Assembly: GCA_965285935.1 (NCBI GenBank)
Contig: OZ260665.1
Span: 53,072,001-53,136,000, forward strand
DNA: 64,000 nucleotides
Reading direction: 5' to 3'
Source: Ophelia neglecta
Lineage: Eukaryota
Part shown: positions 1,716 through 55,017 of the stretch, piece after piece
Layout of the letters: every line of letters starts with the position of its first letter
Numbering within the stretch: the stretch's first letter is position 1
Notes under the pieces: generated by a model
Databases searched by the model: none
Told to the model about the DNA's origin: nothing
What the model saw: only the letters and a program-made list of their open reading frames with translations
Position numbers and translations under genes: made by a program

Positions 1716-2246
1716 ATGATATCCCAGTGTTCGCCGAGGCGCGGGAAATCAATGTCCAGAAGCATTTACTCCAGTTACGAAAAGTCCCGTGAATCCAGAG
1801 CGATTTGGTTGTTGTATGCCATAGTGACGTCCAGTACTCTCTTTACATGCATCATGGCAAACCCAGAAGGGCTACTCCTAAACCAGGATGTCTACCACAA
1901 AATATACCCACAGTTTGAACATGAAGGCGATAAAAGAAATTACATTCGGCTAGGCTACCTTACCGGGTCACAGAAAAGACCTTGGGATCACTTCTACGTT
2001 AAACCCGGACAAAGCACGTCCGGGGCCATCTCACTGGCCATCCAAGAAATCAACGCCAATCCCCACGTACTGCCGAACCACACCTTACAGTTTGTGATCG
2101 CCGAGACGTACGGAGAGGAGGAGGAAAGTATCAAACAAACGGTACTCTTGATGCAAGACGACATCTCCGCCTACATCGGACCCCAGGAAACATGTGTCCA
2201 CGAGGCGAGAATCGCCGCCTCCTTTAATCTTCCAATGATCTCTTAT
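1716..2246 (+). CDS. rGC gene 1 exon 1: signal peptide and N-terminal ANF-receptor ectodomain
   Basis: Hydrophobic [20 protein letters not shown], then [11 protein letters not shown]...[11 protein letters not shown]...LPNHTLQF...[25 protein letters not shown]; donor GTAAGT at 2247, phase 0. Confidence 0.92.
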
Positions 2247-5200
2247 GTAAGTGTACAAACGTTGTTTTACAGTGCAGTGTATATTTCATATACGGTCCGA
2301 CCCTCCTCATACTCCTCATCTCGCCTCCTCTCTCCCATCCCACATACTCCTCATGTCCCCTTCTCTCTCCCATCCCACATACTCCTCATCTCGCCTGCTC
2401 TCTCCAATCCCACATACTCCTCATGTCCCCTTCTCTCTCCCATCCCACATACTCCTCATGTCGCCTGCTCTCTCCCATCCCACCGACTCCCCATGTCGCC
2501 TGCTCTCTCCCATCCCACATACTCCTCATATCGTCTGCTCTCTCCCATCCCACATACTCCTCTTGTCGCCTCCTCTCTCCCATCCCACATACTCCTCATA
2601 TCGCCTCGTCTCTCCCATCCCACATACTCCTCATATCGCCTCCTCTCTCCAATCCCACATACTCCTCATGTCCCCTTCTCTCTCCCATCCCACATACTCC
2701 TCATGTCGCCTGCTCTCTCCCATCCCACATACTCCCCATGTCGCCTCCTCTCTCCCATCCTACATACTCCTCATGTCGCCTCCTCTCTCCCATCCCACAT
2801 ACTCCTCATGTCGCCTCCTCTCTCCCATCCCACATACTCCTCATCTCGCCTCCTCTCTCCCATCCCACAAACTCCTCATATCGCCTCCTCTCTCCAATCC
2901 CACATACTCCTCATATCGCCTCCTCTCTCCCATCCCACATACTCCTCATCTCGCCTCCTCTCTCCCATCCCATATACTCCTCATATCGCCTCCTCTCTCC
3001 AATCCCACATACTCCTCATATCGCCTCCTCTCTCCCATCCTACATACTCCTCATCTCGCCTCCTCTCTCCCATCCCACATACTCCTCTCCCATCCTACAT
3101 ACTCCTCATCTCGCCTCCTCTCTCCCATCCCACATACTCCTCATGTCGCCTCCTCTTTCCCATCCCACATACTCCTCATGTCGCCTTCTCTCTCCCATCT
3201 CACACACTCCTCATGTCGCCTTCTTTCTCCCATCTCACACCCTCATCATGTCGCCTCCTCCATTCATCCCACCCCACACCTCACCATGTCGCCTCCTTCC
3301 TCCCTCCCTCCTGTTCCACAGCCTCGTGGCTTTTCGACTCCCAGTTTCAAACCATCTGGTTCCGCCAGTGGAATGGAATGACGAACAGGATATAGGCCCA
3401 AATCAAATTCTATCATCTAATTAATTTGAATTTCAGACCGCCTTTGCTTGATGTGTCGTATTAATGCGTATCTTTCGTCATCATCTGAGGCAGGAAAGTT
3501 TGCCAATATATCCCTGGGTTTCTTTTAACATCAAAGATAAGGGGTGACTGACGATAAATTATTATGTATTATGCAACATCCCCTCCGTTTTCCACCTTAA
3601 CTGTTGGTACCTTGAATTATGCTGATAAGGTGTCTATGATTAATAAACTTGTCACATAAATTTTTGATTTGAAGCTATTTTAGGTATTAATTTAACAAAG
3701 TAGTTCTCGTTAAATCAGGGAGAACAAAAACAGATCGGTAATTTCCAAAAGATCCTTAACCTGCAAAACATCATTTACACAGCCTTTTATGTATCTTGTA
3801 ATTTTTACGGTTTCTTTGGAATGACCAATGGGCAGAGAGCTTGACCTACCCACCAGCCCAGAAAAGGTCCTCGTTTGTTCGCTCATTTACTCCGTGCGAT
3901 GGAAGCTTGTGTTGTTCAGTTTATATTCACTCGTAACCCAGTGGCTGCTACAACGAGCTTCCTGTCGTCCATCTACGGCCAGTCAGCTTGAGTTTTCCCT
4001 ACCTAATAACAATGTCAAAAGCCTATGACCCAGAATTTGCTATTAATCACTAAGGTTAATATTATATATGACATGAAATCTAATACTGCGTTTTTCGCTG
4101 ATTGCTTTCATTACGAATTAATACGCGTAGTTCAATCCAGTCAATTCAAGTCCATTGCCACCCAATGTCACCTCAAAAACATACAATACCCGTACGTTAA
4201 TGTTTCGGGGGGTAAACGATAGGTATATCTTTACTAAGTTGTTTTATGAGAGTTTTTATGTACTAGTTTAGAAGCTTGATCGTTTACGGAAATTAAATGA
4301 CACGTGTTAAGCGATATTTACAAGCGAGATGGGTTTATTCCTCTCAGTTGCAAGAATCCATTGCCTCTATTTGGGGCATCATTTGCCATTTTTCTTTGTT
4401 GGCCATAAAACGTCTGATGAGAGATGACAACACCGATGGATTTGTAACCTGTCCGACTAGATCATTGGGGGCATGCAATGCTTGCATCGTATAGACTTCG
4501 AGACCCAAAAGTTCAGAGAATAAAATTTCAATTTAATAATATTTGGGCGTCATATATGTCAAATATGATTCTATATATTAACATAATATTTATATGTCAA
4601 ATACAGATAAGTTTGCATGACAACCCCTGTGGGTTAAATCCTTTATTTGTGGCGCACATATTTCGAATTTTTATTGCCTTCACTTTGTAAAAAGTACATT
4701 AGTGTCAACGTATGTATGCAGCTGTCTAATATGAAGTGGGGAAAAATTTTAAGTAGAACGAATAATGATGATATAGACAATGACATCCTAAATAAGCTTA
4801 AAAAGTGTTGCTTTCACATATATTAACAGTAACGAATATTCTCATTGCAGAATGGCGATGATATTCGTATATTTATAGAATTTATCAAATGATGAACTGT
4901 CAATCTAAATGGGATAAACTGGGAAAAGTCAATGGAATTAATAAGTATTGAAATACTAAAACAAAAGTTTTCTTTCTGATAGCCATTTATAATACCACAC
5001 TCGGTTAAACAACATAATTACATAGGTTACTAAATGACATACGATTCATATGATGATTCCTTCCGAAAATGTTGCACTTTTTAGTTTTAAACCGAAAATA
5101 TTATGTTTTATACTATCTTTTCTTATGAGCTATTGACCTGTTTGACATGTTTTGGCATCGTTTACTGTTGTAGGAAGGCCACATATATTTATCAAAGATG

Positions 5201-8200
5201 CATCCAGCCTTCTGGTCAACGATTCTATCAAACCTAACTTGTCAGCGTTATACCGGGACATAATCTCACTGTCAGACAGTTTAATTGAGTAAAGCCACAG
5301 GGAAGAATGCAATATCAGACAATCTCACAATTGTGTCAGGAAATTTAATTTGTTAAGGCTGATATATAAGACAGCCCGAGAACAAGTCCTGTTACTATGG
5401 GATGCATTTTCATATATAAATTATTTTCGAACTGGGTTGGCTCAGCAAAAAGTAATTTATATATAACTTAACCCAAGTATTGCCCGACATGTCATTCGCT
5501 GATGCCCTAAATCATAAAACTACCCGTTATTCAAGGTTCTATTTCAATACCTTCGGTCAGACGTAAGATCCAGGCGCCAATCTATCCCACACAGACCCGC
5601 ATGCGACCTTTATTCAACTCCCTTTATTTGTGGCGCATTCCCGAGGAGAACTCGACAGAGAAGAATTGGATTCTCGTCTATATTTACGATCACAGCCATC
5701 GCCATTTAATCAGGTGTAATACCGGGATGATCATAGTTTCTAGCGATATAGACGAGTTCTTTTTGCATATGAAATTTCATCGGTAAATTTGCAATTTGAC
5801 TACATGCTATTAAATAAGATATCAAATCGATTTTGGCTATTATTTAAACAGCGGAACACATTTTCCATAGAAGGCTAAAATCCTCTACTCTGTTGTTCTG
5901 TGTTTGCAATATATGTAACTGATGACTGCAAAGGGCGGGCTGGCGGTCTTTCTAATTACACAATGTATTAGATTCCATTTATTTTTTTTCACCTGCGCCC
6001 TCTAACTAAGAGAACATGCACGATTCTATAGGCCTACCCATGTCTACAAAACAGAAAAGCCCATTTATCAACGGAAAATCCGTGAAGAATATCATGGCGT
6101 TTGAGATGCAGCGCGCGTCAGCCACAATACGTAATTTCTTGTAAATTGAAATCCGCGACCTGGCGACCCAGCCTACGTTATTCTCAAGTTGACAACTACA
6201 CTTGTTGAGATGCCGCTCACAACACAACCCATATTCTTGCTGTACACATGTTCGTGTGTTGTAATTAAATTTCCATCTCCCTGGCAATATTGTCGACAAA
6301 GGTTACTGTAACCGCGTAATTAAATGCTTATAAATTCTGTAGGTATTTAATTTACTGCATACCACTTTGTGACCAAATTAAATCGCTTTGCTTCCAGCCA
6401 CCGAGCGACCAGATACCGTCCTTGAATCAAAGCACGAAACCAGTGTTACGCTGGCGGGGCGGACTGTTCTTTTCGAGCCAAACTTAGAAAAAGCCAACCA
6501 GCTCAGCCATGATAAATACGCATCCATTATGTTTGATATTGAATGCAAGCCTGTAGCTGTCACCCTGCATGTATCGAAATAATTCACAGACAAATAATGA
6601 TTAAAAATAAATAACAACACGCATTTATAGTATTGGCTATAAAGTATATGTTTTCTGATATTTTCCAAGCAAGCCATGGCCTGTCAAGTTACCCGTGCTC
6701 AAGCTTGCATAAGCTTGCAATTCAGTTAGTATTTTCCCTTTAAATGCATGTCCATTGTTCACGCTGGACAGTCTTAACGGCCATCTGTCAGCTGTCGTTG
6801 CTTACGCTCAAATTTCGCGTTGCTCCTTGGTTGTCAGCAAGCAAGCACAATGACGGATGGCAGCAGTACGACTTCTCGGCATAGAAGTCGCCCAAATGTG
6901 ATGCAAGTAAAATAAGTGATTCTTTCGGCTATTGCAGTTAATTACCGCGATGTTCTCGCTATCGGAATAACATAGGTTCTGCACTTGTTTTTCCCTGACA
7001 ATTGTCATATCGGTGAAATCAATCGGCTAGAGCAGACAGATTAGGCCTGCTTTGCTGCGTGTCAGCGCAAACATCTCCCCAGTGTCAATTGAACGGGGAC
7101 GATGTAATGGTTAAGCTGCCCCTAAAACATTCGTATCTTTCATGATCAGAGCGTTGTAAAATACCGGATTTAACGTTTGCAATACTTATCCCCCTTCAGT
7201 ATTTTAGGACAACTTTTTAAACGCCTTGATAAGGTAGGACAATTCACCACTAGAAGTGGTCACGTTATTTATACAATAATTCGCCAATACATACGATAGT
7301 ACGGTTATTCCAGGTAACATGGGAGCAATGAAGATAGTACATGTATTTCCGTACAAATGCATTATGATCAAGGTTGCGTCCTCTGCGATGAAGAGTAGAC
7401 TTCGTATTTTATTGAAGTACAACAAGATATATATTAACATACTAAGGCATTGATCCTTCAAGCATTGTGCCTTCAGTCTGAAAGGGTTTATTTAAAACTG
7501 CGCAAATACTATTGGTTTGTGCCCCGAGGTTAGTTTTATCATCAGGCTCAGTAACATTGAGCTTCGTTTCAGGGCCAGATTTGTATTCTGCCAGCCATGC
7601 ACTGAGTAAGAGGGGCTGTGGTCTGGTGGCGTGCTCACGCTATAGGTGCACGCGGATGTATGGTTTCTTGCTGACTGCAACTGTGTGGTTCACTGGGGTT
7701 TACTTTGAGACAAAAATCTTTACCCTGACACTAAGCTCTATTTTCCAAGATGTGGAATATCATGGACCGATGTAGAAATTATTTTGTAGAATAACCATCA
7801 AGTTGAATGTCACAATAAATTAACATGCCCACTTGTCAAATGATAATTGTACTGAGCAGGGTCTAACCTCATCTGTTTGGTTGTTTCCCCGCGGACAGAC
7901 ACCGAGTCTGCAAAATGTCATACAAGCTGAGATTGTCCTTGTCCTCAATGAAACATTTCTTGAGAACCCGAGATACTGTGAGCCAGTCCAATCATTGGGT
8001 CTGGCGTATCACTGTTATATGTACAGACACCCAATTAAATTTTGGCGAAAGGCTTCCAATGTCAATGCAAAAGAATTTACAAAATGGGCTTCCATTGTCA
8101 CCGTAATAGTAATGGCAAAAGAATACATGAAATATGTGATGTACATTTGTATATAAATTCAGAATGTAAACGTATGAGCATAGACTACCAAGGATACGAA

Positions 8201-11200
8201 ATCTCCGTTTAACTCCAGATTGCCTTACTTTTTCACGATTACTGAGTCTTCGCAAGATGTAGACTTTAGTGCCTCATCGTGTCCACTCCCAATCTGTCTA
8301 TTATACTATTCTTTACATTTATCATAGTATTTTTGAAAGATACGACACACAGGGTGCCCTACCCATGTATCCCAGCAGAACTACCCAGCTGTCCTTATTG
8401 ACTGCAGCTTTACCTAATATTACGATGTGCAGCCTGTATAAACTGTCAGTTCTGTAAAACAGATCCTAGTTGAAAACTGTCCAATATTGAAATCCAATTT
8501 CCAGCTTCATGTATTCCTTTAAATAAGTTTTTAATATGACGGTCTCCTTGAGTCCCTTCGTTCCCTTATACATTGTTATAAACAGTGTTATCTCTTTTTC
8601 CTAACTTCATTTGCTTTACATATTCTGGATACCCTGACTTTTACACTTCAAATTCACATGCAGTTACCCAATTTTTATTTTTTGCCAAGCGCTTTGATGA
8701 AGTTGGCGCCATTTAAGTTTTTTTGAGAGGATTCGTAGTACTGTATTCTTGACATCTGCTTCAAGGTGGCCAAGGATTAAATCAAGTATGTTATTCCCTT
8801 GGTGAATGTCCATCTCGGCAAACCAGCATCAATGTTTGTGCTATCACTGCCAAAAAACCTTCCACATATTGCCCCTGTGACCAACGACATCGAAAGTAGG
8901 TAAAAAACATCACAAGAGCTGGATGTGTTTGTCAATGGTTGTCTTTATCACCAAGAAATCAGTGAAAATCAAGCAGACAAAGCTTTGGTAACCTCAACGA
9001 AGGATGATAGAAGTAATGATGGGATTGAATCGTTTGATAACAACTCTGCTGCTGAACAGTCCGGGAAGGACAAATCAAGTCTGATTAGGTCTGAGGTATA
9101 CACTGTACATGAAGGAGCATCAAAACAAACGGTTGGGGTTGTCTCTAATCTTTGCGGATCTGATAAGAAAAAAAACCGACACGTTGTTATCCGAGAAAAA
9201 AGAAACTTAGCAAAGCGGGAAAAACCCACATCAAGGCATTGAAAAAAGACACCAAACAGCCAGACATAGCTACTTTTATATTCACTTATAGCCTACATCT
9301 GGAAAAACACAAAGTAAGGGTGAAAACAAAACACGGTGTGGTGGTTCTATCTTCAATGTGAAGTGGTGAGGGCTTATCTTATATAACTTAGGCAAATGTA
9401 ATGTTTGTACCAAGGGCGCTTAAAATGATAAACCCATCAGTTACATAATATTGTATTCTTCACAGGCCTAAATGCAAACGAAAGGAAGGATACGGAATTG
9501 TGATGGCCATCTAAAAATAACTAACTAGCACGGGAGATCGTTTTGGATTATATTATCATTTCCGATATGTTACCTATTATACATGTATTGTTTCCACTAA
9601 CAGATAGGCTTACCTACTGCAAGTCTACACCCTGTGGATTACAGGATATACTTTAAAACAAATATGGTTACCATTTTAACTCAAACAAAAACAACTTTAT
9701 AACGAATTTGGAGCCTACTTGTTGCTATGTCAGGAATTACCTAAGTTTTGTTAATCTGGTAGCTATTGACGAATTCTATTGACTGAAAGGCGGTAATCTT
9801 GGAAAATGGCCACCTTGCTAAATTTCGTAGTACAGACGTGCCAAGCGTAATAAATTGGGTAGCGGACGAGGAATTGCTATACATATTGCTATTTTTCACT
9901 CCATCCCTCTTCAGTACCCATTCTTCGCACGAACAGGACGTGTTACACAGATTCGTAAACCTTGACCTTAATTGATATGTTGACGTTTTATTGTGAATAT
10001 ATAGGATATATTTCAATGACAGAGGTTCTCAAAACGGAAGCAATATGATGAAAAGGTTTATTTTAGGAACCTTTGGATTAGCGCACTGATTTTATGGCGC
10101 CATTGTCAGTAAAAAAAATGCCAGTCCTCTCGATAGAGACATTAACCACGACTCTTTGTGTCGAAATAAACGACTCGAGAATGCTTAGGGACTTGTCAGA
10201 ATATATTTACGGAGGGTGGAGGTGTAGGTCATACCAGTTGTATGGTTTCCATCAGCGCATAGAAATTGGCCCCTGTAATGAGCAAAGAAAGCTATGTGCT
10301 CCCTATGAGCATCAGGCACAAGAAGGACATCACTCTGGATTAACTTAATAGATATGTGCAACCAGAAGGCATTTTAGAGCAAATCAATGTGACCCAAATA
10401 AGTGTGTACGGAACAAAAATTGGGCCAAAAAGGGGCGTCTGGAAGGAAACCAGAGCACATTTTCAAAGCAGGGAGTTTGTCTTAATAAAGAAAACACAAA
10501 CATACTCTCTGAAGAGATCCTGCTCTGAAGGCTGCACGGTATTGAGGTATCGGGCTCCGAAGTGAAGTGCCCTTAACAGAAAATATGTTCCGAGGATGCG
10601 TCCTCTAAAGAGAGTACACTCTAAAGAATGGGAACTCTAAAGAATATTGCCTATAGAGGGAAGAGCTCTCTGAGGGTTGGGCTCCCAGAGAGAACTGTTG
10701 TGGAATTTTGCGGATTTTGTTTACTAGATGAAAAACATATCCCCGTGCCTCGTCGTTGAATTTATAATAGGACTAGCTACCCCCCTGCTTGTCTGGACCA
10801 TGGAAAACGACGTCCACTCGCTCTCAAGTGTGTTCAGACACATCCCTTGTGATATATTTGGTCCGGTCTATCTATAGTATCTATACTATGTTATGTGGAG
10901 ATGCAGTATCCGCAGAGAAACCACAGTGGGTTCTCCTTTTTTAACGTCACGATCTAGCTGCCTTTGGCCTTCGCTTAATGACTGGAAACATTATACAATT
11001 TCTATCTAGAGTCCGTCTTCCGAAAAGTGCCCTGTTCCTAGGACCGTGTGCGTGAGAAAAAAAGTATAGCGAGTGAGATGAGTAATGGCATGGCCTTTCT
11101 CATTTCTAAATCATAACAACAATTCAAACAAATTAGTGATAAATGTTTCAACCAAAAGATATATGATATACATGTATAATTGTAAGCTCATGTGCCAATC

Positions 11201-14200
11201 TCTGTAGGAGGCCTGGAAAGAGGCTACTGTTTCCCCGTGGGGTAACCAATGTCTCCAGGTACCTAAATAATGACCTCAATATTATAAATATTTGTTTCCA
11301 ATGTTCCAATGTGTCTATTGCTTTCGTAACGGCATATCAATAAAATATCAAATATCTCATTGGAAATAAACAATGGCGTCTCTGTGGATCGTAGCTTTTA
11401 GTTGACATTAAAAGGAAATCGACAGCATAAGTCCCGACTGGTGCTTCTCGATTCTATTGGCTGACTCTTTGCTTTTTGGACGCTGCCCTTGCGTCAAGCA
11501 AGAAATCGCTTGTGGAAGGCGGAAGTTCATCACGATGCACCATCTGGCCTGTCATGCCACAACGCTTCCACCTTTCATGCTTTCCAATTTTGCCTTATCT
11601 TTACCCCAATCAATTATTTTCATTCATCGGACAGATGAAATGAGGACCACTTAACCATTATCTGGCACAGGTAGCAAGTACTTGGCCATTGAAATAAGTT
11701 GGTTTATATCTTATTTCAAAGCCACGAGCTAGGGGCAATATGAGCAAATTTGACACTTTTAAAAGCACATCATCTACCGGTCTACCTTCCTGCAGGAGAG
11801 GGAATTGATGGTTTATAGGGTTTCTCTGTAGCGCGGTATAAATGTTAGCGCTTGGTTCACATCCGTATAGAATGCTTAGCAATGTTGTATAAAGCAGTTA
11901 GCCTGGGGAGAATAGTAACTAATTACGATTCCGAAAATAACATCAGTGAATCTAACATAGAAATTGGGTGGGCGATGAAAGTGTCGTCTGAGTGGGTGGT
12001 CAGGCACGTCGCGTATTGTTCGAAATGAGTGTTTAATATCGATGCATGTTAATTTCCAACGACTGCTTGGAACATATAACATTCTACTGGGAGATGATTT
12101 GCATCCGTTTCTAGCTTTTAGTCACGCGCCAAGTGATGCACTGGGCAGATAGTCCCAGCGTCTTCAAATAATCACATAATCAACTGACACATCTCATCCG
12201 GGCGTGCAATATTTGCAGAAATTACCTCGTCATTGAACATATTAGATGTACAATATGGGTGAGCTAACTTGACCCTATTAATCTGCAGCTATAGTCCCTC
12301 CATTACCTTTCAATGCGGTTTTTATCAATGTTAGCTCTTCCACTGGCCCCTCACCGATAGAATCGCATTGTCGTTTCTCTCCAGGGACTTGTCATTAATA
12401 TTTGCAAATGAGTTAGAAACTATAAAGTTGTTTCGTTTTCCAATGCTGCATCCATTTCAAAAGAGCAGTTGGTAGTAGTTCTAATAGTTCTAGTAGTTTC
12501 GGCTTCCAATGCAGCATTTGATTTAATATTATGTTCATATTGACACCTTCTTCCGGTCTTCTTTGTCTTTAAATTTCTTTTCACATCTATTTCACAAGCA
12601 GATAGTTTGGAGTGAAGGGTTTTTTAATCAGTGGTAACGCAGTGCTGCATGATAAGTAACAACAGGCCTGTATCTGTGTTACAATGCGTTTCTAAGACTC
12701 TGGAGAGGCTGATTTATAACAAGACTCTTGCTCGTTATTGATCATAATAAATCTTTATATAAATATCATTTTGGCGTTCGAGAAAAACATGGCACCAGTG
12801 CAGCACGTACTGTTTAAGTAGACGCTATTCTGCAGGCTAGGCAGGAGGAAGACTTGATTCTGGGAGTCGTCCATAATGAAATCAAAGCTTTTGATATGAA
12901 TAACGTCGTTTTCTTTTGTCGAAATTGGAACAATATGCTGAAAGAGTTGTTGTGCTACCTGGTTTTATTGAACACAACATAGACGGTTTTTGTCACCATA
13001 AACAAGAAAAGTCGAGCACGTAGCGCCGTACTAGCAGTGGTGGTGTGCATAGATGCTACGTGCTTTCTCACTGTCAAATACTAGGCAAAAACAAAGGCTC
13101 AGACCAAGTCTTGGCAGAGAGTTCCTGCTCTAAAAAAAATATCACCGATGCTGCTCACTGCAGTATTGCGAATCTTGTTACTCCTTCCTTGTCTTTTCAA
13201 ATACAACCTTGAGATACCGAGGAGTAAATGTTTTTATTTAGATCATGGTCTGTTCATACCTTTTGATAATGATTATATACATATCCTATAGTATGTATAT
13301 GTCATACAATCATTATTGAACATTACTCGAATGCATTTAGCATTAATACTATTCTGTGCATATAATCAAACACAGTTTTAAAAACGTGTGATTCTCGATA
13401 TTCGTTATTTAAGGCTTAACTTGTTTGTATAGCGTGCATGTTTTGGAGTGATTTTATTGTTTTATTGTATATGGTGAGTCAGAAAAATCGATCAGAATCT
13501 TTTTGCGTGTCTTTCGAACCTAACAAACATATTACATTTTATGTTGGTCTGTTAGAATTCAGTGTTGCACGTTTCCTTATCTACTCTTTTATAGGAGGAT
13601 AAAAACTGGGTGTGATGTCAAAGCATATTGTTATTGGTTTTCAATAACGCCGCCAAGGGTTAACACATTTAGGACACTCTCATATATAAACCTACTAAGT
13701 ATGATCCAGATCATCAACACATAAAATCAACAGACGAAGCGTTTCTTAAAGTTAGGACCTATACGAAATTAGAATATTCAGCAATTTCAAATCGGTAGTT
13801 TATGTATATGTTGTTTAACTAGGGGGCGCTTTTCAAACAGTAGCAAAGCTCACTACAAATGTTGGTCTTCGGGGGCTGAAACCTCCCTCACTAATGTGCA
13901 AGTTATAGTGTGTTATAAGTTATAAACTAAAGTATTACTTGGATAGCCATCGCAGCTTGATATTTATTCCTGTCTTAAACTTGTAGATTGTTTTGACTCC
14001 TCCACAAAGAAAGTTACCACTTAATAAATTTTTAAGATCATACTACTATTTAAGTCTAGTTTTGTTCTAGAAACTAGGATATGGCTCTTATAATCAATAA
14101 TATCTATAAGAATGATTAAACTTAGACTTTAGTATAGAAAGAGCGGAGCTCTGGGTTTGCTTCAGTTGTAACTGGGAAACATGTTAGTTGAATTTGAGAA

Positions 14201-42236: not shown

Positions 42237-43030
42237 AAACACAGCTTGCCTAATAGAAAGATAACTGTCGTCTGAGATAATACTACTCTAGTATCATGGT
42301 GCCAATATCTTTTAATATTATTTACAGGCGTATGAAAAGAAGGCAAAATATCTTATGTTATAGTAGGCGTTTACCGATTTAATGAAATGGCAAATGCATA
42401 ATAGTAGTTTGAAAAAGCGGTTACTTTGATACAGTGGCGTATCCAGCGTATAAACAGATATTTAGGAGAGGAATGGCAAATACTAGTACTACTAGTCTAT
42501 AATACTTAGCGCCTATATCAATGATATGTAAACAATATTGCCTGAAACCCATATAGTTTGTTGAAGTTAAGTGCGGCTAAAACATAGAAATAAATGTATT
42601 TTTATAACTAATCCAAAAAAATATGATGCATATATATATCGTTGTTGTGACCTGGTGACAAATAATAAGTGCCCTTTGACAGCAATCTCCAAGTAGGCCT
42701 ATAAGATTAGTTGTGTATCCGCCTGGGTGAAGTGTTCCCATATTGTGCACAGATGCTCTCTTTGAGGCAGTCATTTCTGTCGTTACTACCTGATCTGTTC
42801 GGTGGTACGTATTTTTATTGCCCGATGTCGATGATGGTCTCCTCATTTTGGTGTAGGCCGTCGTCACCAATCTATTCAATCACCGAATTGCTACAAGTAT
42901 CCCCGAGAATGTAAATTTGGAACATGTTTATAATTTAATTACTCGTTTGGAATTCATCATAACAAATAGAGAAGATATTTTTTATAGATTGGATAACTAT
43001 TTTTCATAAAAAATATATCTAATACTAAAA

Positions 43031-43370
43031 AATAAAAAGTCACAGGTTAGAGCTTAATCATCCTAACAACCTGTCTGCCAGAGAAGTATTTTTCTATGAA
43101 TTGATTATCATGAACTTGATATAATAGTATTTTGCATTGTTTATTGCTTATCATGAACTCATTCTATTTGTCCCATTAAAGTTTGACTACCCTGCTCTTT
43201 GGACTAGACTTTTTCGTTCTATAAGAAATAAGGGATACTGGTGCAAGCTCCAATGATAAATGAAGATAGTTTCCATAAAATGGGCCCCACATCAATCAAT
43301 CAATCAATGAAATCTCGTTCCGTAACTGTAAATCGGTATGTATCTAAAATGAAAGGAATTAATGAATAAA
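43031..43370 (+). promoter_or_regulatory. Candidate polyadenylation signals for gene 1
   Basis: AATAAA at 43031 and 43365 and ATTAAA near 43176, 0.8-1.1 kb after the stop. The AT-rich context makes chance hits likely. Confidence 0.3.
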
Positions 43371-46300
43371 TGGACTGTTAAGTATTTTGTTAGGACTGTT
43401 AGGAAAGAAATTGCAGCAGACGTGATTTGTCAATATACTATATGCCAAAAGAAGCATAAATCCTTACAAAACGCCGCCAGTAGCAATATAAACATCAGAG
43501 TACTTAGTCTAATAACTTATTGAAATGGTCTGCTTTTTGAGGGGGAAACCGTGAGGCGATAAAAACAACAACTAGCGTATTGACTTTGTACGCTTTTAAA
43601 GGCAAAGAAACTTGTCGGGATTTAACATTACAAGAAATAGAGTGATTTATTTTTGTAATCGCTGTCTGACAGAACATTAGCTGCGGCAGATTGGCTAAAT
43701 ATCTAATTACCAGGACAGATGTCTGCCGAAAAGAAAATGATGCATTGCTCAGCCGTGGACTCATTTTATTATAAGTCAGCACACGCCTGTGTTACTGACA
43801 ACTACTATAAATTGTATACATATATTCAATTACTAAGTAGCTTCCCAGCTCTTCCAGGGCAAAGCCACAAACGAAATCTGCCATGAAAACTAACTCGCAA
43901 TTAGTAAAAATATCAGCCACTACAATGGTCCGAAGAACGGGATATTTCCAATATATTGACCGATTTTGGAATTGGAACAAACTGTAACTAAGCCTACTTT
44001 GCCGATGAAAGCTGAAAAAGGTGGCAGCCATAACTAGGTTATAAGGTGATCTAGAAAAGTTTTGGGTGAGCCTGGCATACGGGTACGAAATAATAAATAA
44101 TTCATGTGCGAACCCCTGTAAAACTTCACATCGCATTCACTTATTCACTAGGCCTAAACTTATAGATATGCTAGAGAAGCAGGGAAAGACGAACAAGCTA
44201 AGGAAATCTTAATGTAAGTTGCAGAAATATCAAATAGGGAAGCAGCTAGTATATTATTTGAATAAGTTAGGAATATCAAATGGTGATTTTGACAATTAGC
44301 CAATATCCAATGGGGAAAATGGATCTAATTGGATGCTGCTAGGAATTACCCGCATACTGTTTTAATTCTACGTAGTTCTAATCAATATTGCCATGCTTTT
44401 TGGCAAACCTCTATGGCATAACAGGAGTTATGCAAGCGCTGATATGACGTGTATAAGTTAATCGCACGATAAAAAACACCTGCCTGAGCCCGGCAGACGA
44501 ACGATGACGTATCAAAATATCAAACGCAATTTTCTCTGTGGATTGTTCCTGTCAGAGCGTCCCATGAAACATTTTACAGACAAGAACTTTAGTAGTTTTT
44601 TATGCGTGTACCAAATGTAATTGGATAGCCGTTGACACTCTCCGGGGACATACCATGAGGTTCTCGATATATTTAGGCATGGAAGTTTTAAATTAAATGA
44701 TATTTAGTGCACATATATCAATGCACAGTATAGTATGTTAAATTTTGGAGAACTACTTAAAATTTCTAGGTAACAGCGCCATTTTGACATGTTTAAACTA
44801 TAAACACCTATTTCTCATATCCAGCCATTATTCAGGTAGGCAATTAAACTCTACAGGAGTCTAGGTCAATGCGCCACCTGGTTAATCCTCTTAATTGTTA
44901 AGTTGTTAATCAATCAAGTCCTATGAATTCAAATGAACATGTGTGTTGCCGAGCGCTCCCTGGCATCAAGAAATTGTCTTTGTTTTAGTTTAGCTTCCTA
45001 TTTCACGGTTCCAACATAATTTTGTCACATGATATAACAGGCCCATATATAGTCTTATGGTTTTTGCTGCTACCAGACAGTTCAGCTAGTGCAAGAAATA
45101 CCCCATAGAATGCAAATGTAATTTTCAAAATATATCTACAGGGATGCATATTTGGTGAAATTGCCAAATACATTGCTTTTTCAAATCATGCACATCTAAA
45201 ACCTGCCAACTGCAATGATGTACTAAAGCCGAGATAGTGTTTTCCGGTGTAATTCGGCGTGGGACCTTGTTGTAATGGAGGTACAACTTTATTTGTGAAG
45301 CTAACAAAGGATATTTTTCGAAGTGAGTGCCTTCTATCGGCTATAAAACAGCTGTATTTGTAACAAATATTAGCACACCATTTTTCGAATATTATTGACG
45401 CATATTGAACGAAAAAAAGGAACCTAATTGCCTTAAAACGTTTCAAGGACGCTATGCGGAATGAAATTGTACGGCAAGATCCCAGGGCGTGATTCACATT
45501 TAAACCGTATAATATTTTTAAAAATAAAATCATTTATAAATGCGGCAATTCATCTAACCACGAGATGGCTCCGTTAAAAATCGAAAACCTTTCAAGGCAT
45601 GACTAATAAAACGAGAATTGCAAATAATCTTTACTGGTATTTTCGTCCAAGAAGCAATCACTCTGCACATAGATCCTTTAAAATCTGCTCATCTCGTCTG
45701 CACGTTTGTCCCCTGGTCTATTTCCAGTAATATCCTAGCCGGGTTTCTCTCCTGACATGACTGGAGCTTACTTATATAATTGAGAAGCTGATAAGGATTG
45801 GTTCAATGTTTAGCCAATGTGAATGCATGTCGTTTTTCAATCTGTTTTTGCTCAGGGTTTCCGTGTTGTTATTGAAGCTGTTGAATTGCCTAATACCGAA
45901 ATTGCATTTACTTTATTTATCAATGCTATTTTATTTATACAACGCCATTAAGCTTCGGCAAAACAAAACGACATTCGGGTAAATCCTATATAAAGTAGGA
46001 AGGAAACCTAGTTTAAAATACAGGAACAAGGAGATTAAGTATTTAACTATACAAATGTCGACCATAGTGGACAGTATCCTTTCACTGCCAAAATTCAATA
46101 TTGTCTTAGACGACATAATTATATGTTACCTTCCCACAAAATGATCACGTCATACAAGTTAAGTTACTATGGCAGTAAGACTCTGATCGTAGTACTTCCA
46201 AATCATTTATTCAGGTTCTGTGTTAATGTTTTGGTGTGTGGAAATACATACATGTACATCAGTCTTAATTGTGCAGTCAATTTAAAGTTAAATTTCGTAA

Positions 46301-46699
46301 TCAGTTTTAAATAAAGGCTGAGATTGACATCACCTAATTCTCAGGGACAGTTCATTTCAGACTCTTAAGGAGTATGTAACGTAAAGGGCTATAGTTTCCA
46401 CTACTCCCTGTTTTTAAATCTTGGGTCTAGGTCTCGTCTCGACCGATAGTTCGTAACGAAATGAGGGTAGCACACGAGAGGGATGAAAACGAATGGTTAT
46501 TCCGGTAAATAACGTTGCGATGGCTTTGTTGATGGAGGTACTAATGGCTGGTAACAAGGAACCTAAAGGTGATATTGAAGTAAACTGGCAACAGCACGAA
46601 CAAGGCCAAGGTAATTCACTACAAAAAAAAGACAAAATAACTATATTTTATCGTTGCTGTCATGTCAACACCTCTGACATGCTTTGCGTCTTGTTGTGA

Positions 46700-46970
46700 G
46701 TTTTGATGTAGACTGATGATTCTTTCCTCAGAATGCATGTCTTTGGCATCCACTGATAGAATATTTGATAAATGTACAAAAGGTCGTCTGATGCTGGCCG
46801 GTATGACAGGAGTTGGTAATATAAACTATCATTTAAACCCATTGATGTCAGGAAGATTGTGGTTTGCAGGTTTACATCCCGTCTTTTCTGCACGCCAGTG
46901 AGATATGTCTTCTCGCTATTCCTTTGGTCTTCTTGGACACCTGTACCGCTTGGAAGCTCTGCATTCTAGA
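46700..46970 (-). mobile_element. Possible decayed transposon C-terminal remnant (Cys-rich CXC-like end)
   Basis: Frameshifted minus-strand peptides ELPSGT...WRAE...LPD.NG...PASDDLL.FIK...SGCQ...RKN resemble the LPPT...WR...GW...PAP..LL..I.C.C..GC ending seen in invertebrate repeat ORFs. Heavily degenerate. Confidence 0.3.
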
Positions 46971-47399
46971 AACGTTGTCACATTTATAGTGACTAAGATC
47001 TAAACTCCGAAATGGTTTATATCATTTCTTGTGTTTTATGGTGGTTATTGTTCGTGCCACGGCGTGGTTTATTGGCCTATCTATTTCATCTTTCAATTAT
47101 TGTACTAAACAGTCATGAATATGTCTTCTGCAGGTTTATCTACTGTATATGTCTAAGTTTGCTCAATGGTTTCATGTGTCATACGAGCACGAAACCTGGG
47201 GTGTCAAGGAAATCCAACTTCCTGTTCCGTATATATACCTGGGTCTATTAAGCAGGGAAGACGTATTGTACGTCTCCCCTCACATTCATGAGGAGAGGTT
47301 AAGTGGGTTCCATTTCCAGTTTTGAAAATTGGCAAATCCCGAAACCCTGGATATTTCTTGCCATTACACAAGAAATAGGCAATTACCCGTATTCCGGCA

Positions 47400-48760
47400 T
47401 ATTGAAATAGCGATTGCTTAATAACGAGAAATCAAAAAGAATATTCCCAGGTCACAGATGTCGAAAGTTCTTGGTCCCGAAACACGGCAATCTAACCTTA
47501 ATGGGGCAAAATTAAAAGGTCCACCACGTACAGAGGCGCTTCTGGTAGAATTGAACACAAAGCCATCATTCTCAGCCGCCGTACGGTCTGTCAATATATA
47601 CAACCTGCTGTCGTTCAGGAATTCGATTAGGGCATGGCCTTGCTGGTTCCTGGTTTCAGCAATGGCCAATCTGTTGGGCTATTCAATGTCCAAATCTACA
47701 TTTAGGTCTGCTTTTGTTAAAGTACTGATGTAACCGGATTGATTGACCCCAGTACACATAGTCTCCCAGATTGTGAATACTAGGAAAAAAGTCAACGGAG
47801 ACACTCAACACTAGTAGATATAGTCCAAGGGGACAGTTGTTACTAGGACCAAGTGCCCTCTTGACATAAATGTCCATCGTTAAATATTTAATATCCTGGA
47901 TTGTATTGTCCCCTCTCACAGTCCCAGGGGACTTCTATTTCTTTTAAACCGGCAGGAAAATTGAAGTCGCCACAGATATAAGCCGCATCCACAGAGTTCA
48001 GTCTCATGAACATCTGAGCGAGCAAATGATAAAAGTAGGTCATCGAGTCCCGTCCAGTGGTGGTCAATAACATGCATAAATAATGAAATTGTAATGGGTT
48101 GCCATGTGGCCAAACTCTGCATCCAGAATTCCATAAAAAGCATGCAATAATATTCAAATCAAATCATTCAAACATATGGGATTTAATTTCTTTAAAAACA
48201 TACTCATACAGCGTATCACGATTCAACGGAACTATTTACACCCAGGGACATATAAATTCTTGATTAATTTCATTAGTAGTTCCGTAGCTCTCCATCAATT
48301 AAAAAAAATTCTGCCTAACTGGCATTGTATACTTCACAATAAATGGTTTTTCTCAATCACTAATGTGATCGTGCCAGCATTTGGCATTTATTATATTAAT
48401 ATTTTTAAAGTCCCTTGGGATGGGATGATCTATTCATCCGTGTTCTCAAGCGGCTGATTTTCATTCCGTATGCCATTTACCACGACCACGCCCGCGCATG
48501 CCTTGGCCGCCCCCAACTCCTTCGCAGTAACGAAGTTTATTGTTAAGCATACTCAGGCTTTCCTCAAGGCGCCATAGTTATTATATGTACACTTTCATTG
48601 GATAAATTCCTGCCTTTTTTGTACGTCAAAGTGGAAGTGAGGGGTTGCCAATATGATTAGCTCTGACGGATACATCATTTATCATTTATGTGTTGTTAAC
48701 ACCATTAAGTGCTTTTGATAGATGGACCATTCCTTTACCCGATTAGGTGGTTTATGTGCT
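47400..48760 (-). mobile_element. Decayed LINE: ORF1 end and APE endonuclease fragment
   Basis: Minus-strand peptides AAYICGDFN and RNQQGHALIEFLNDSRLYILTDR...DGFVFNSTRSASV (APE GDFN and N.HG..L..F.....L.ILNGR motifs); Gly/Arg-rich stretch near 48480-48520; abuts the assembly gap. Confidence 0.78.
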
Positions 48761-49080
48761 NNNNNNNNNNNNNNNNNNNNNNNNNNNNNNNNNNNNNNNN
48801 NNNNNNNNNNNNNNNNNNNNNNNNNNNNNNNNNNNNNNNNNNNNNNNNNNNNNNNNNNNNNNNNNNNNNNNNNNNNNNNNNNNNNNNNNNNNNNNNNNNN
48901 NNNNNNNNNNNNNNNNNNNNNNNNNNNNNNNNNNNNNNNNNNNNNNNNNNNNNNNNNNNNNNNNNNNNNNNNNNNNNNNNNNNNNNNNNNNNNNNNNNNN
49001 NNNNNNNNNNNNNNNNNNNNNNNNNNNNNNNNNNNNNNNNNNNNNNNNNNNNNNNNNNNNNNNNNNNNNNNNNNNNNNNN
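48761..49080. other. Assembly gap (320 N)
   Basis: Run of N. Confidence 1.
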
Positions 49081-50379
49081 CAAAATTTATAAATACTATC
49101 AAAATAATAACGCTATTAACAACAAATTTCTCATCATGGGTGATTATTTGAACAAGATACGTTTATAATGTTTATCGGATACTATTTGAATGCTCCAAGC
49201 TCGTACATTCTACATGGTACAGTAACGACGACATAATGACAGAGAGGGACGTTAATTGGAATTATTTTGGAAATGGCATATGAATAAATCCCAGCATGAG
49301 ACAGTTTGTCTCTGGTACTGGCCAGAGCATCCTGCACCGATGAGCTACATCGTATGGGCAGATCAATACTAACCTAATAATAAGCTATCATTGACACAGG
49401 TTCTGATATTGCCGCATAAATGATGAGTATCTCAGAATGCCCCTAATTGGATGGAGAGGAGCCCATAACTAGGGTCAAGAGAAGCCATGTACGCGACCTA
49501 CTTCTCATGGGGTTTCGACCGAAATAACCGGCCGCAAAAGATGTCAATTTTAACACATTAACCTAGCTGATTAACTCGTAAGAAAGTGATATAAATATTT
49601 TCAAAGATTTCTCGACTAATGAAGTTTGACGCCTGACAAAGTGGACGGGAGAGGGTTCTGTACTCAACTTTAAATTGACACAGTATAGTTGTATTAACTA
49701 ACCAACCAACCAATCAGCCTTTGAAGGTCATTAGCTAAGCATAATTCACTTCATCAGAAGGACGAACAGCAGATTATTTACCAAAAGGTCAAAATAAATG
49801 GGCTTTTTGTTGGACGAAATTACCATGTGTCGATATAGGCCCCGTGGTATCGTCTTTGTCATTATGATGACATTAAAACTATTCTTCAATTACTCCTAGA
49901 AATAGGCCTCAGGCAGTGTCCGTGGCCCTTTTATATATACATGTACATGTACTCATATTCACAGAAAGCCCATAGACTCATGCCGTGTCGGTTTTGCTGT
50001 GTTTCATTCGTTCATTAGCCCGATCCTGACTGAGCTATATGGCCGATCTCATCCCAATTCGATTGCAGGTGTGCAACAAAACCACTTATAACAAATGGAA
50101 AAATAACATTATACTAGCAAGACCAAGAAGTAATGCCAATGGATCATCATTATTAACGGAGTTATGTAAATAGTCTTAAATGTCTCATACATATTCTATC
50201 AATATTGTGATTTTATCCGTGTGGCAGCCGATTATGCTCCTGAAGTCGAACGCGTCATTGCACTTATACCATATGTTACCCACACACGGGAAACTCGCGA
50301 TAAATCGTCATCCTTTATATATAGATATATATAGATATATATGCATATAAAACCCTGCTCAGAGGACCCCCTCCCTGAA

Positions 50380-51800
50380 CATGCCAGCCACGTTTCACGT
50401 TAAGCGGATTACGCCGGGACGCTTGGATATGCTATTTTTCAAGTGACTAGTGATTCATTTGGATAGTTTTCCTAGCGGCCATTTCACTGTTAGTGTCATC
50501 TGCAAACCGATTCGGATGCGTAGGACGGGAGAAGATGAGTACACGTTGTGTGATGTGTTTCATGTCACCCTGAGATAGAAAATAGAGAATTCCTGGGAGA
50601 GGAGAAAGATCACGCCAAAGTGGGCAGCACAGGCTTACGTTCGCCAATCCGACACCCTCAGCCCGCTAAAGGGTTGAAACCTGAGTGTTTATATCTGAGT
50701 TGAGGCAACTTAGCGGAAGAGAAGAGCGCATTAAGTTGTTCCTCTACCGTATGCCGAGCCATGCCTAAGGCTCTGGGCTCTTTGCTCTACAATCTGACAA
50801 AGCTCTGGCAAGGAGAAGATGGCGACATTTTAATTCGGGGATTTGGGTTTGGATCATGAACAACGCTGGAGATTTTGTCCCACACTCTCGCTGATGACAG
50901 CGTACGTCCATTTAAATCAATTTGCCGAGCATAGCTCATCCTGTATGTCCCCTAAATAACACGCACTGACCTGCTGACCGGGCCATCGGAAAGAGTGGGC
51001 CGCACGGAAGTCTCGTTTGCATGCTAGATTAGTTAAGAGAGAATTGCGGTCAGAAGTACAGCAATTTCGCCAAATAATTTGAACTTAATGGTGGAGCAGG
51101 TGCATTTAAAAGCGACACGCTTCTATTGCTTTGTCCCCCCGCGCTTGCTCTTTCGACTCTGGGGACTTATGTGGCGAAACATTTAAGGACACACTAATAA
51201 CGAGTGGACTTAAGCTAATAGGCGACTGTAGCAAGTACCACAAGGGCTCTTCACCAGATTGCGCATAAATCAAATCCTAAGCCCTTGGATTCATAGCGAT
51301 GCATTATCAGGAGTCGAAGATGCGCTTTAAAGTGGCGGCGAGCCAGGACCCCGATCCGGAAGTTAGGTATGATGGTTCGGGGAAGACGGACGTGTGATTT
51401 ATCTGTAAAGGTGCCCGCTAAGTTTTTACCATTTCACCTCTTGTGTTTAATGGTCATAGTTAAGAAGCAAGCTATGTAAGAATGTAGTTGTTTAAGACAA
51501 CCCTTACCACCTGTTGGAGCGGTCGATATCACCCTCAAGGCAAGCTTTTGTCAATATACAGAGAAATCAACCATAAAACCAGGAGCGCCGGCAGAGAGAG
51601 CGCAGACGACCGGCCAGTCGCGTCCACAAACGGCACGTCGGAGCTTGTCGCTCGCCTAGCTCTACAGTGGCACTTTGTTTGTCGTTGGTAGACACCTTTC
51701 CAATGGCTTAAAACTGACAAATATATAGCCATGCAGATGATGCATCATATCATCACGAACGCAACTTTATACGTCTTCTAGTGTGAACATCAGATTTAGA
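50380..51800 (+). promoter_or_regulatory. Putative promoter/5'UTR region of gene 2
   Basis: CpG/GC-richer stretch directly upstream of the second signal-peptide exon, similar in character to 780-1630. Confidence 0.35.
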
Positions 51801-51801
51801 T

Positions 51802-52197
51802 ATGGAATTAACTGGGATTTTGTGTCGTCTTATCGTCTTCATGACAGTATTATTCCATCAGGGAATCCTGGCCCAGATGAACTCCAACAAAAGCTTTCTC
51901 ACTGTGGGATATCTGATGGCCGATACCTCGTACAACGGATTCGTTAAGAACAAGCAGGGGCGGGTGATTTCTGGAGCCGTGACTCTAGCTATCCAGGAAA
52001 TACGGAATAACGCTCAATTGTTACCGAACCACGATCTCCGGTTTATATATTCCGATACCAACGCCGATGTATTGAACGGCACCCGGAAACTGACAGAACA
52101 ATGGAAGGCCGGGGCAGTGGCCTTCTTTGGGCCGGAGGACTCTTGTGATGTCGAAGCCCGTGTCGCAGCGGCTTGGAATCTCCCAATGATCTCTTAT
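51802..52197 (+). CDS. Receptor guanylyl cyclase gene 2, exon 1 (partial gene; Gyc76C-like ectodomain)
   Basis: Signal peptide MELTGILCRLIVFMTVLFHQGILA, then FLTVGYL...KQGRVISGAVTLAIQEI...LLPNHDL...AFFGPEDSCDVEARVAAAWNLPMISY|gtaagt. Same intron position and phase as gene 1. No exon 2 (C..FART type) recognised before 64000. Confidence 0.88.
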
Positions 52198-54869
52198 GTA
52201 AGTAAACAATCAAATGGCAACAAGTTAGAATGGGACACGACATCGTCACTTTATCTGTGTGGGTTTTCGTATATTTTATTGATTTAGTAGACAGCTCGAT
52301 ATATTTTCCTACCAATCGCGCATTAAATCCAGGCGTCCAGTATAATTAACGTTTAATCAAGCATAGACCACTAATCAGTGTCCGACTAAAAAGGGGTTCC
52401 ATATAATTAATTTTGCGTTTAAACAAATTTAACGAAGTAAATAATCTTTTCCTGGATATCCTTAGAAATACTTTACTGTACGCTGGTAACTCACCGGAGT
52501 CGCTTTATGTGTTCCAGTAGACACGTCTACAGATGTCAGCGGTCACTTTACTAGGCCCTGCCATTTATAACGTGTGTTATGTTTTAGGAGAAAATTATTT
52601 GAATACCCATTGGATGGGGGGGGGGGAGGTTTGGTGTTTCATTTAATCTGCTAACTTTCTCATTTAAAGTCATCTCAACAATAAAAGTCACAATTCATAA
52701 TCATAAAACCAAATCATTCCTCTTTACTATATGCCTAATAAAAATAAAGACTTAATATAACGATGATTGGATCGATTGTGAGGTTAGCAAGGTTAGAGCC
52801 CTAGAAAGGTGCACCGCTTAGATGCAAAAATTGGTAAATTAGATTGTGAAATTTATGTCGTTCGGTTAGTCTCAGGCTGGCATGTTTTTGCCTTTTTTCA
52901 AGTCGTCCGCAAAGAGATCATGCTATTCTCTTGGATATTGCTCAGATTTAAGAGCACGATAATGCAGAGGCAGAAAAACTGTGCCTGCAAGCCAGCGTAT
53001 AGACCTTATCGACATCCGAGATATGTATGCCTATTAAATTGAATACATGGTTTGTTATAAGCTGTTATTATTATATTGTATTAAATTACTAGAGAGTGGA
53101 CAACATTCTACTGTAGACAATTAGTACATTCATATTAGGATAGTTGGTTGAAGACGTCACCAGCCAAGAGATAATTAGAACATTTCGTGGTTTTATAATT
53201 ATTTTCAAATGATTAACCCTTATGAGAATATGAATACAATTTTTTACCTGCTTCTGTTGTCTATTTTTCTAGCTAGTCTTGCATTTAAAAAACGTTTTCA
53301 CTACAACAAGTTCAATTTTAAGTTACTTTTCAAGTTCTACTTTGTCACCCTTAAAACAAGGATTATGACTTGAGACAACCTACTATGCATGTTGCCTTAC
53401 AACTTATTTTGTTAAAAACAAAATTTGTTTCATGAGAGAGTTAAGATTTTCAAGTATGTTCCGGCGTTGAGTTATATTGCTAACATCTTTTTAAACGTGT
53501 TGGGCAATCTGTCATAGCTGCCCTAAGCTGACCTTAGGAATTTACTGAGCAAAACGGAATAATTTACCAATATGACATAATCGCATATTTGCCCCATATA
53601 GTAGAAATGGTCGTCCACACGTCCACTCAGAAGGTTTTGCCCCCCAAAAATATATGTTTAATAGATTCACGTACATGCATTCCTTCCTTAACTTAATTGA
53701 GATCATTATTTTATTAGCTTGAGCATAACAAATGTAACCGAAATTACGCCCATCTCCCCTATATACATGTATATATCGCATTCTGTTGACCTTGGTTGTG
53801 TCATCTCCCTTGTCTAAAGAAGAATTCCAATTGCAATAGTTATAGCACATTTCAGGATGTTTCCGTCTGTCATAGACAACTGTCCAGCGAGCCTATTCTT
53901 TCTTGGCAATCTTTATACTATCTCGGTATTAATGTTTTACTCGTAAAAAATGATATTCATAAAGTTAAGTTTTCCTCCATAATAGCATATTGTTCGCTTG
54001 AGTAGGTGCTGCTGGTTCGCTGATGGCTTCCTACAATGCTCTTTTAGTTGGTAATGTACATTAATAATCTGTAATCAGTTTCTCTCAACGGCCAACTTCC
54101 GCTAACCTCAATCCGAATTTGCCATAATTTACCAATATTACATAACATCATTTACCGGATACCTACGGAAGTCTGGGTATTTCCTGCAGGGATCTCCAAT
54201 TCAGTACCTAATGCTCATAACATGTGCCCAATCACAAAGTGATTGCTAAATATTATGAGAATTTCTCTCCCTTTGGGAATTATGAATGGGTTATTTGGAA
54301 TGTTAATTGCCGAATATTCCCATATCTCTGCCTAAGGTGATCCCTGTTCCTGATTTGGTGACGTCTGACAGCCACTAATTACATTCATGTTCATTGCACT
54401 GGTGGTTCCGTTGTCTTAATGGCCCCAGAAAATGATCACCACTAATATTCAAGAAGAGTGTAAGAAACACAACTACACAGTAACTACGAGAAGGCCGTCG
54501 GAGTCTTCTCTTGATGGTAGAGTTGATTGTGCTCTGCAGCGGGCAAACACATCCCGGAATTACATTCGAATCAGCTTTTTGCTCCCAAAAAAATGAGCAA
54601 TCGCTCTGGAGATCGAAAAGCTTATGTGAAGCAGACAACAAATCAAACTACAAACATTTGTATCAGTATATGCGGCAACAAACATTATGCACGGACAATG
54701 TTGTTTTCAGTGATAATTAAAGACATGGTTCTATGTAATGTTATTAATTTCTATGGACATGATGACTTCATGTGATGTTATTGTCTGATGGCAATGTAAG
54801 GGGCGTGTAATGCCTCTTCTCTGTGGCATGCAACCATGTTGGCATATATTAAAAGATCATATCTTCTTT

Positions 54870-54985: not shown

Positions 54986-55017
54986 TTCATTTTATTTTCA
55001 TCCTCATTTTCTATATG

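Follow-up and report, generated by a model that had tools for sequence, protein, structure and literature searches.

A Linked Pair of EHR-Type and Gyc76C-Type Receptor Guanylyl Cyclase Genes, Probably Inherited from a Protostome Ancestor

Introduction

A gene of the eclosion hormone (EH) receptor (EHR) clade and a gene of the Gyc76C clade, both encoding receptor guanylyl cyclases, stand next to each other in a 762 Mb animal genome, and their adjacency was probably inherited from tandem duplications that took place before annelids, molluscs, and arthropods parted from their common ancestor. Both genes begin in a stretch of 64,000 nucleotides (the window, G000:C8:53072001-53136000), where they form the middle of a 188 kb array of four complete receptor guanylyl cyclase genes, the outer two of which were revealed by tblastn. 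Receptor guanylyl cyclases are single-pass dimers whose ectodomain binds a disulfide-bonded peptide; binding activates the cyclase by way of the kinase-homology domain, and cGMP rises. EH sets off moulting in arthropods, and the ITP/CHH peptides govern water balance, sugar, and moulting. The receptors for these peptides were only recently matched to their ligands, and most work on them has been done in Drosophila, where the two genes appear unlinked. Physical adjacency of EHR and Gyc76C across annelids, molluscs, and arthropods is independent support for their orthology and their origin by tandem duplication, and it provides a positional route to these receptors in new genomes.

The genes themselves are additional members of known clades, and nonarthropod orthologues of EHR and Gyc76C have been published (PMC6660194, PMC12611267). 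EH and EH receptors were reported in annelids and molluscs in PMC6660194, and EH with its receptor outside arthropods also appears in PMC5627052. The texts of PMC12611267 and PMC13267572 present protostome-wide Gyc76C and Gyc32E clades, describe the Gyc76C clade as protostome-restricted, and identify Gyc76C as the ITP receptor. The dipteran receptor-cyclase clades are laid out in PMC3863949, and further literature on the known part includes PMC6878697 and PMC4237046. Linkage of EHR and Gyc76C across phyla, with Gyc32E beside the pair in this genome, is apparently unreported. No statement of EHR-Gyc76C linkage was found in full-text searches of the running text of mostly open-access papers, so a prior mention is possible.

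Structure of the Gene Pair and the Array

Gene models were predicted by spliced alignment to homologue profiles over the window and 200 kb on each side (Table 1). A sequence-only reading of the window had described two receptor guanylyl cyclase genes on the same strand about 9.6 kb apart, with an identical exon-1 boundary and strongly diverged ectodomains, and the models bear this description out. Genes 1 and 2 are both intact and run head to tail, with 9,565 bases between the stop of the first and the ATG of the second. Their first coding exons contain every motif that had been quoted, and both end with LPMISY followed by a phase-0 GT donor (2246 and 52197). The two proteins are 35.6% identical in the ectodomain and 53.9% in the kinase-homology domain versus 73.7% in the coiled coil plus cyclase. 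Gene 1 has GT-AG borders at 21/21 introns and a stop at 42236. Gene 2 (23 exons, 1291 aa, ATG at 51802) has only its first coding exon inside the window and ends at G000:C8:53172979. The spacer between them contains a single N run of 320 bases and gave no Pfam match (three ORFs of at least 105 aa scanned) and no Rfam match. A 587-codon frame across exon 1 was rejected as coding because it is a read-through of a 35-base minisatellite.

Table 1. Features of the receptor cyclase array and identifiers of EHR-Gyc76C pairs in other species (plain positions are those of the window)
Feature	Position or identifiers	Strand	Remarks
Gene 1, EHR/CG10738-clade receptor guanylyl cyclase	1716..42236	+	22 exons, 1316 aa; spliced alignment; start codon predicted
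Gene 1 exons 1-11	1716-2246, 14385-14561, 24668-24794, 25650-25796, 26113-26294, 27239-27374, 27481-27632, 29975-30080, 32981-33059, 34121-34256, 34411-34581	+	
Gene 1 exons 12-22	34908-35084, 35229-35397, 35789-35938, 36514-36697, 37126-37266, 37499-37622, 37868-37999, 39142-39253, 39934-40032, 41282-41373, 41610-42236	+	
Near-identical tract common to genes 0 and 1, first ligand-binding exon	1990..2250	+	likely gene conversion
Spacer between genes 1 and 2	42237..51801	.	9,565 bases, one N run; no Pfam or Rfam match
Gene 2, first coding exon	51802..52197	+	signal peptide and ectodomain start; motifs, LPMISY boundary, phase-0 GT
Gene 2, first intron up to window end	52198..64000	+	
Gene 0, tandem copy of gene 1	G000:C8:53042864-53063510	+	22 exons, 1313 aa; fully upstream of window
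TRPV5/6-like open frame	C8:53176195-53178519	+	between genes 2 and 3
Gene 3, Gyc32E clade	C8:53211636-53230732	minus	21 exons, about 1150 aa; tail to tail with gene 2
Pair in Lottia	ESO83952/ESO83957		same scaffold; identifier order
Pair in Patella caerulea	SNE40_019184/019182		same contig; identifier order
Pair in Apis	XP_016766759/757		identifier order
Pair in Daphnia pulex	XP_046437662/660		identifier order
Pair in Anopheles	AGAP012161/012163		2 apart; identifier order
Pair in Culex	CPIJ010082/010083		1 apart; identifier order
Pair in Aedes	AAEL008387/008390		3 apart; identifier order

The locus had been taken for a gene pair. The linkage of the two genes stood, but the pair is actually part of a four-gene array drawn from three clades, with two members outside the window. 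On the upstream side, gene 0 ends some 10 kb before gene 1; on the other side, gene 3 lies 39 kb past the end of gene 2 and is convergent with it. No further receptor cyclase gene was found in the 464 kb examined around the array. Introns of the four genes are GT-AG in 81/84 cases and GC-AG in the other three, and all frames are open. Each protein has two hydrophobic peaks, namely a hydrophobic N-terminus and one membrane span, and full-length alignment to PF01094-bearing homologues indicates an ANF-receptor-type ectodomain. Each also has a kinase-homology domain, a coiled coil, and a cyclase domain; the catalytic motifs [16 protein letters not shown] and CLFGDTVN are present in all four proteins, as is [24 protein letters not shown]. 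We take residues of the four cyclase domains to be the metal-binding Asp and the GTP-selecting Glu/Cys. As predicted from these sequences, genes 0-3 are intact receptor guanylyl cyclase genes. An intron at LPMISY is common to all four and absent from an unlinked receptor cyclase on C7. The same genome has other cyclase arrays on C5 and C7 that appear lineage-specific, and clustering alone is therefore common.

Clade Identity

Three tree analyses agree on the placement of these genes: FastTree with 60 rows, IQ-TREE under LG+G4 with 43 rows and 992 columns (22 redundant rows dropped and 5 added), and a mixture model with 16 rows. Support in the 43-row tree (SH-aLRT/UFBoot) is 99.9/100 for the EHR clade, 99.6/93 for the Gyc76C clade, and 100/100 for the Gyc32E clade; in the mixture-model tree the corresponding values (UFBoot/SH-aLRT) are 100/100, 96/99, and 100/99. 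The Gyc76C clade is anchored by NCBI-named tick proteins and a moth protein, D. melanogaster Gyc76C being absent from the trees, and the Gyc32E clade by Tribolium castaneum Gyc32E XP_015837765. Genes 0 and 1 are sisters that stand beside Capitella ELU09058 within the D. busckii CG10738 clade, and they carry 21 and 22, respectively, of 24 EHR-diagnostic N-terminal residues. Gene 2 is sister to Capitella ELT90006 within the clade of tick and moth Gyc76C-type proteins, grouping with arthropod and lophotrochozoan members, and has all six Gyc76C-diagnostic N-terminal residues. With Capitella genes as the closest relatives, the animal itself is likely an annelid near Capitella. The trees and residues thus confirm the earlier assignments of gene 1 to the CG10738/BdmGC-1 type and of gene 2 to the Gyc76C type. 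Gene 3 is sister to Owenia CAH1794616 and groups with the Tribolium anchor in the Gyc32E clade (CG33114, the orphan GC1); it has one of three Gyc32E-diagnostic residues, a set too small to be informative. Gene-3 exons aligned poorly to a Gyc76C scaffold, and that alignment was discarded.

Origin of the array as lineage-specific sister paralogues, which had been named as a check on the sequence-only reading, was rejected by the AU test. With 19 rows, a clade of genes 0, 1, and 2 was rejected at p 1e-54 and a clade of all four genes at p 3e-5. The trees and AU tests place the clades of the array members as older than the phyla compared. The mixture-model tree does not resolve how the three clades of the array, a fourth clade from lophotrochozoans, and the genes of echinoderms branch from one another, and no gene of the fourth clade (Owenia CAH1795400-like) stood out in this genome. 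Judged from sequence, genes 1 and 2 need not be direct sisters. Two introns are common to genes 2 and 3 but occur in neither gene 0, gene 1, nor the unlinked C7 cyclase, which hints that genes 2 and 3 may be closer to each other.

Linkage in Other Species

Linkage elsewhere was judged by identifier order, not by coordinates or orientation, in 11 species with both EHR and Gyc76C identified. GenBank and VectorBase locus tags are usually positional. In seven of the 11 species, the identifiers of EHR and Gyc76C differ by 1-5: two limpets, the bee, Daphnia, and three mosquitoes (Table 1). A control was available in the mosquitoes, where EHR-Gyc76C is the sole close pair among 15, 15, and 21 receptor-cyclase pairs and the next closest are 157, 419, and 553 apart. 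The mosquito identifiers were taken from Table S1 of PMC3863949. For Apis and Daphnia, EHR was assigned by the present trees, and Gyc76C follows the asterisks in Table S1 of PMC13267572; the Daphnia pulex Gyc76C label is the one given there, the protein's own sequence being outside the analysis. Two cases were left out of the count: Pediculus, in which Gyc76C lies two loci from a receptor cyclase (PHUM100000) without clade assignment, and D. melanogaster, in which CG numbers are not positional.

The remaining species are less tidy. In Patella vulgata and Haliotis asinina both genes are on one chromosome with accessions 826 and about 167 apart, respectively, which indicates that RefSeq order is not strictly positional. 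In the nearest relative, Capitella, the two genes sit on separate short scaffolds of 288 and 95 kb. The D. mojavensis identifiers are 2008 apart, so that the link looks broken in Drosophila. The sequence-only reading had called for microsynteny across phyla, and this was found by identifier in molluscs, a crustacean, and insects but not in Capitella or D. mojavensis. It could be argued that only chromosome-level linkage is ancient and that the close spacing evolved independently or merely reflects how identifiers are assigned, as the distant accessions on shared chromosomes in P. vulgata, Haliotis, and Owenia and the separate Capitella scaffolds would allow. This explanation is improbable given that locus tags agree in five species and that physical adjacency was read directly in the present genome. 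The neighbouring identifiers in limpets, honeybee, water flea, and mosquitoes make it likely that the pairing goes back to an ancestor that worms shared with molluscs and insects. Together with the tree placements and the AU tests, they support the proposal of an ancient tandem duplication kept as a linked cluster. A metagenome scan found two receptor cyclases at 0/77 loci, most of which are too short; at one near-intronless, Gyc76C-like locus (L081), 10 kb of upstream DNA has no second receptor cyclase.

The Duplicated EHR Genes

Identity between genes 0 and 1 is 78%, their dS is about 1.2 and their dN 0.087, and their introns cannot be aligned, which marks them as true, selected paralogues. 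From these sequence comparisons, they are a later, lineage-specific duplication under predicted purifying selection. The exception to their divergence is a tract of about 255 bases in the first ligand-binding exon, picked after inspection, in which 3/79 same-residue codons differ versus 344/768 downstream. Three sequencing runs of a single study gave read contigs in which both flanks run into the shared tract and both genes are present; the entry of both flanks argues against an assembly chimera. The tract was likely homogenised recently by gene conversion, keeping part of the ligand-binding lobe alike, and conversion likely keeps both EHR copies tuned to a single EH peptide. A homogenised ligand-exon tract in a tandem duplicate sets this locus apart from Drosophila CG10738/EHR and Bactrocera BdmGC-1, as does a host that is likely nonmoulting.

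Gene 0 was also considered as a second haplotype and rejected on the dS, the unalignable introns, and the presence of both genes in the read contigs. The same data bear on a broader objection, namely that the array expanded within this lineage alone or was created in assembly, by a misjoin at an N run or by a haplotype copy. An N run does separate genes 1 and 2, and lineage-specific cyclase arrays do appear to exist on C5 and C7. Nevertheless, the AU tests speak against a lineage-specific origin, and identifiers place these two genes side by side in other phyla as well; the objection is largely refuted and must be considered very unlikely.

Ligands

A search for EH-like and CHH/ITP-like precursors, proposed with the sequence-only reading, succeeded for the first and not for the second. 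One EH precursor gene is present on C1: it encodes 81 aa, matches Pfam PF04736 (Eclosion) at 27.1 bits against a cut-off of 25, and is of the six-cysteine type with close likeness to the Capitella EH in the supplement of PMC6660194. A search of the genome turned up no further copy, and a second Eclosion match on C5 is not a precursor. The presence of an EH precursor is a further likeness to the EHR clade of insects, and genes 0 and 1 are probably activated by this EH-like peptide. A complex prediction for this peptide and a pair of Capitella EHR ectodomains, used as a stand-in, gave a median score of 0.17, below the mark of 0.34, and speaks neither for nor against binding.

For CHH/ITP, a PF01147 search of the genome detected no precursor (best E 0.485, under the cut-off), and a search with a CHH/ITP motif gave four matches versus three in the control, none of them a precursor. 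This is a difference from the Gyc76C clade as known for ITP/CHH reception; however, the absence does not count because spiralian CHH-related peptides, reported in annelids in PMC10501145, are too divergent. In the Drosophila assays of PMC13267572, ITP increased cGMP by way of Gyc76C but not of EHR, and one recent assay showed no activation of Gyc76C by NPLP1-VQQ. Of the NPLP1/ITP-type ligands earlier named for Gyc76C, ITP is now the best supported. A CHH/ITP-type peptide is somewhat favoured as the activator of gene 2, and gene 3 would be an orphan receptor, for which its place beside EHR and Gyc76C points to a related ligand. EH and ITP have a common C-X2-C-X12-C-X3-C core (PMC13267572, PMC12611267).

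Origin and Retention of the Cluster

Tandem duplications before the protostome ancestor would have produced adjacent EHR and Gyc76C genes whose linkage was then retained. EH peptide would bind the dimers encoded by genes 0 and 1, and a CHH/ITP-type peptide those of gene 2, with peptide binding leading to cyclase activation and cGMP signalling. EHR and Gyc76C may be held together by cis-regulatory sequences, common to both or interleaved, that would lie in the spacer and in first introns of 12 kb, under a constraint loose enough for the loss in Drosophila. This account of retention, the weakest part of the proposal, is about evenly balanced between being right and wrong.

Ancestral linkage could also be neutral: the pair would then be a leftover of tandem duplication, unbroken so far in several lineages, without shared regulation. 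The pair is broken in D. mojavensis and apparently also at a mite-like locus, and genes 0 and 1 have no alignable noncoding DNA outside exon edges. The roles of the fly receptors are separate according to PMC13267572, with EHR unresponsive to ITP and serving moulting, and Gyc76C serving hindgut water balance. Against these points, the pair is kept in three phyla, and in mosquitoes it survives while all other receptor-cyclase pairs, Gyc32E included, have dispersed, which would favour regulatory constraint over neutral persistence. Neutral retention is a real possibility, if one that we would not expect to prove correct.

The EHR-Gyc76C linkage has counterparts among ancient clusters of paralogous genes. 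Hox, ParaHox, NK, and Wnt clusters are old tandem paralogues that neighbour each other across phyla and were broken up in fast-rearranging lineages such as Drosophila. EHR-Gyc76C is similar in being composed of old tandem paralogues that are neighbours across phyla and apparently split in Drosophila; it differs in that its members are peptide-hormone receptors, for which a regulatory reason for retention is putative. The linkage raises two questions that can be tested, namely what role EH has in nonmoulting animals and whether the two receptors share regulation.

A bolder and rather unlikely extension is that the array is a surviving protostome proto-cluster of EHR, Gyc76C, and Gyc32E, in which the receptors for EH and ITP/CHH, two six-cysteine hormones with a common cysteine spacing, arose side by side by tandem duplication and co-diversified with these ligands, shared regulation kept EHR and Gyc76C together for >500 million years, and the EH signal was coupled to water and ion balance before moulting evolved.

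Tight linkage of Gyc32E, 39 kb from Gyc76C, is particular to this genome; in mosquitoes it is unlinked by identifier. In Owenia, Gyc32E and Gyc76C lie on a single chromosome-length contig, as do Gyc32E and EHR in three Daphnia species, and in D. magna Gyc32E lies 168 loci from EHR.

Likely Gene Conversion and Related Cyclases

The two tandem copies of the eclosion hormone receptor (EHR) gene likely share a gene conversion tract (Table). Exon 16 of gene 1 (window 37126-37266), in which only 4 of 40 codons differ between the copies, may be a second tract. The long open frames that arise from the minisatellite in intron 1 of gene 1 are spurious.

Beyond this genome, Owenia CAH1795400 (P0344) and proteins from Lymnaea (P0166) and Plakobranchus (P0290) form a fourth clade, related to Gyc76C and Gyc32E, that is apparently lophotrochozoan; in Owenia, CAH1795400 shares one chromosome-length contig with Gyc76C and Gyc32E. 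Gyc76C-type genes with no or almost no introns occur in metagenome contigs (loci L079-L086; proteins P0136-P0164) and probably derive from mites.

Elsewhere in the O. neglecta genome, the eclosion-hormone-like precursor is encoded in one exon, with a signal peptide and six cysteines. The extracellular part of the uninterrupted cyclase frame on C1 is of a non-ANF type, and a spliced relative of this frame lies on C5 near 34.18 Mb. The additional guanylyl-cyclase-like arrays are probably lineage-specific expansions. The exons of L026-L028, which lie upstream of the cyclase array, belong to a large gene of the adhesion type.

Table. Features of the window and the O. neglecta genome (G000; C, contig; L, locus)
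Feature	Position	Strand	Remark
Likely gene conversion tract, EHR copies	window 1990-2250 and C8:53043130-53043390		
Minisatellite, 35-base unit, ~28 copies	window 2308-3308		start of gene 1 intron 1
TRPV5/6-similar single open frame, 775 codons, ankyrin repeats	L020:195-2519 = C8:53176195-53178519		between genes 2 and 3
Exons with EGF, HYR, Sushi, ephrin-receptor-like domains	L026-L028, C8:52.87-52.90 Mb	minus	upstream of array
Other ANF-receptor-type ectodomain exons	C8:49687336 and 61140826		same chromosome as array
Eclosion-hormone-like precursor, coding region	L046:1462-1707 = C1:109662238-109662483	minus	
Uninterrupted frame, 771 codons: membrane span, kinase-homology and cyclase domains	C1:59641765-59644077		
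Additional arrays of guanylyl-cyclase-like exons	C5:18.6-19.7 Mb; C7:69.38-69.41 Mb; C2:104.46 and 104.76 Mb
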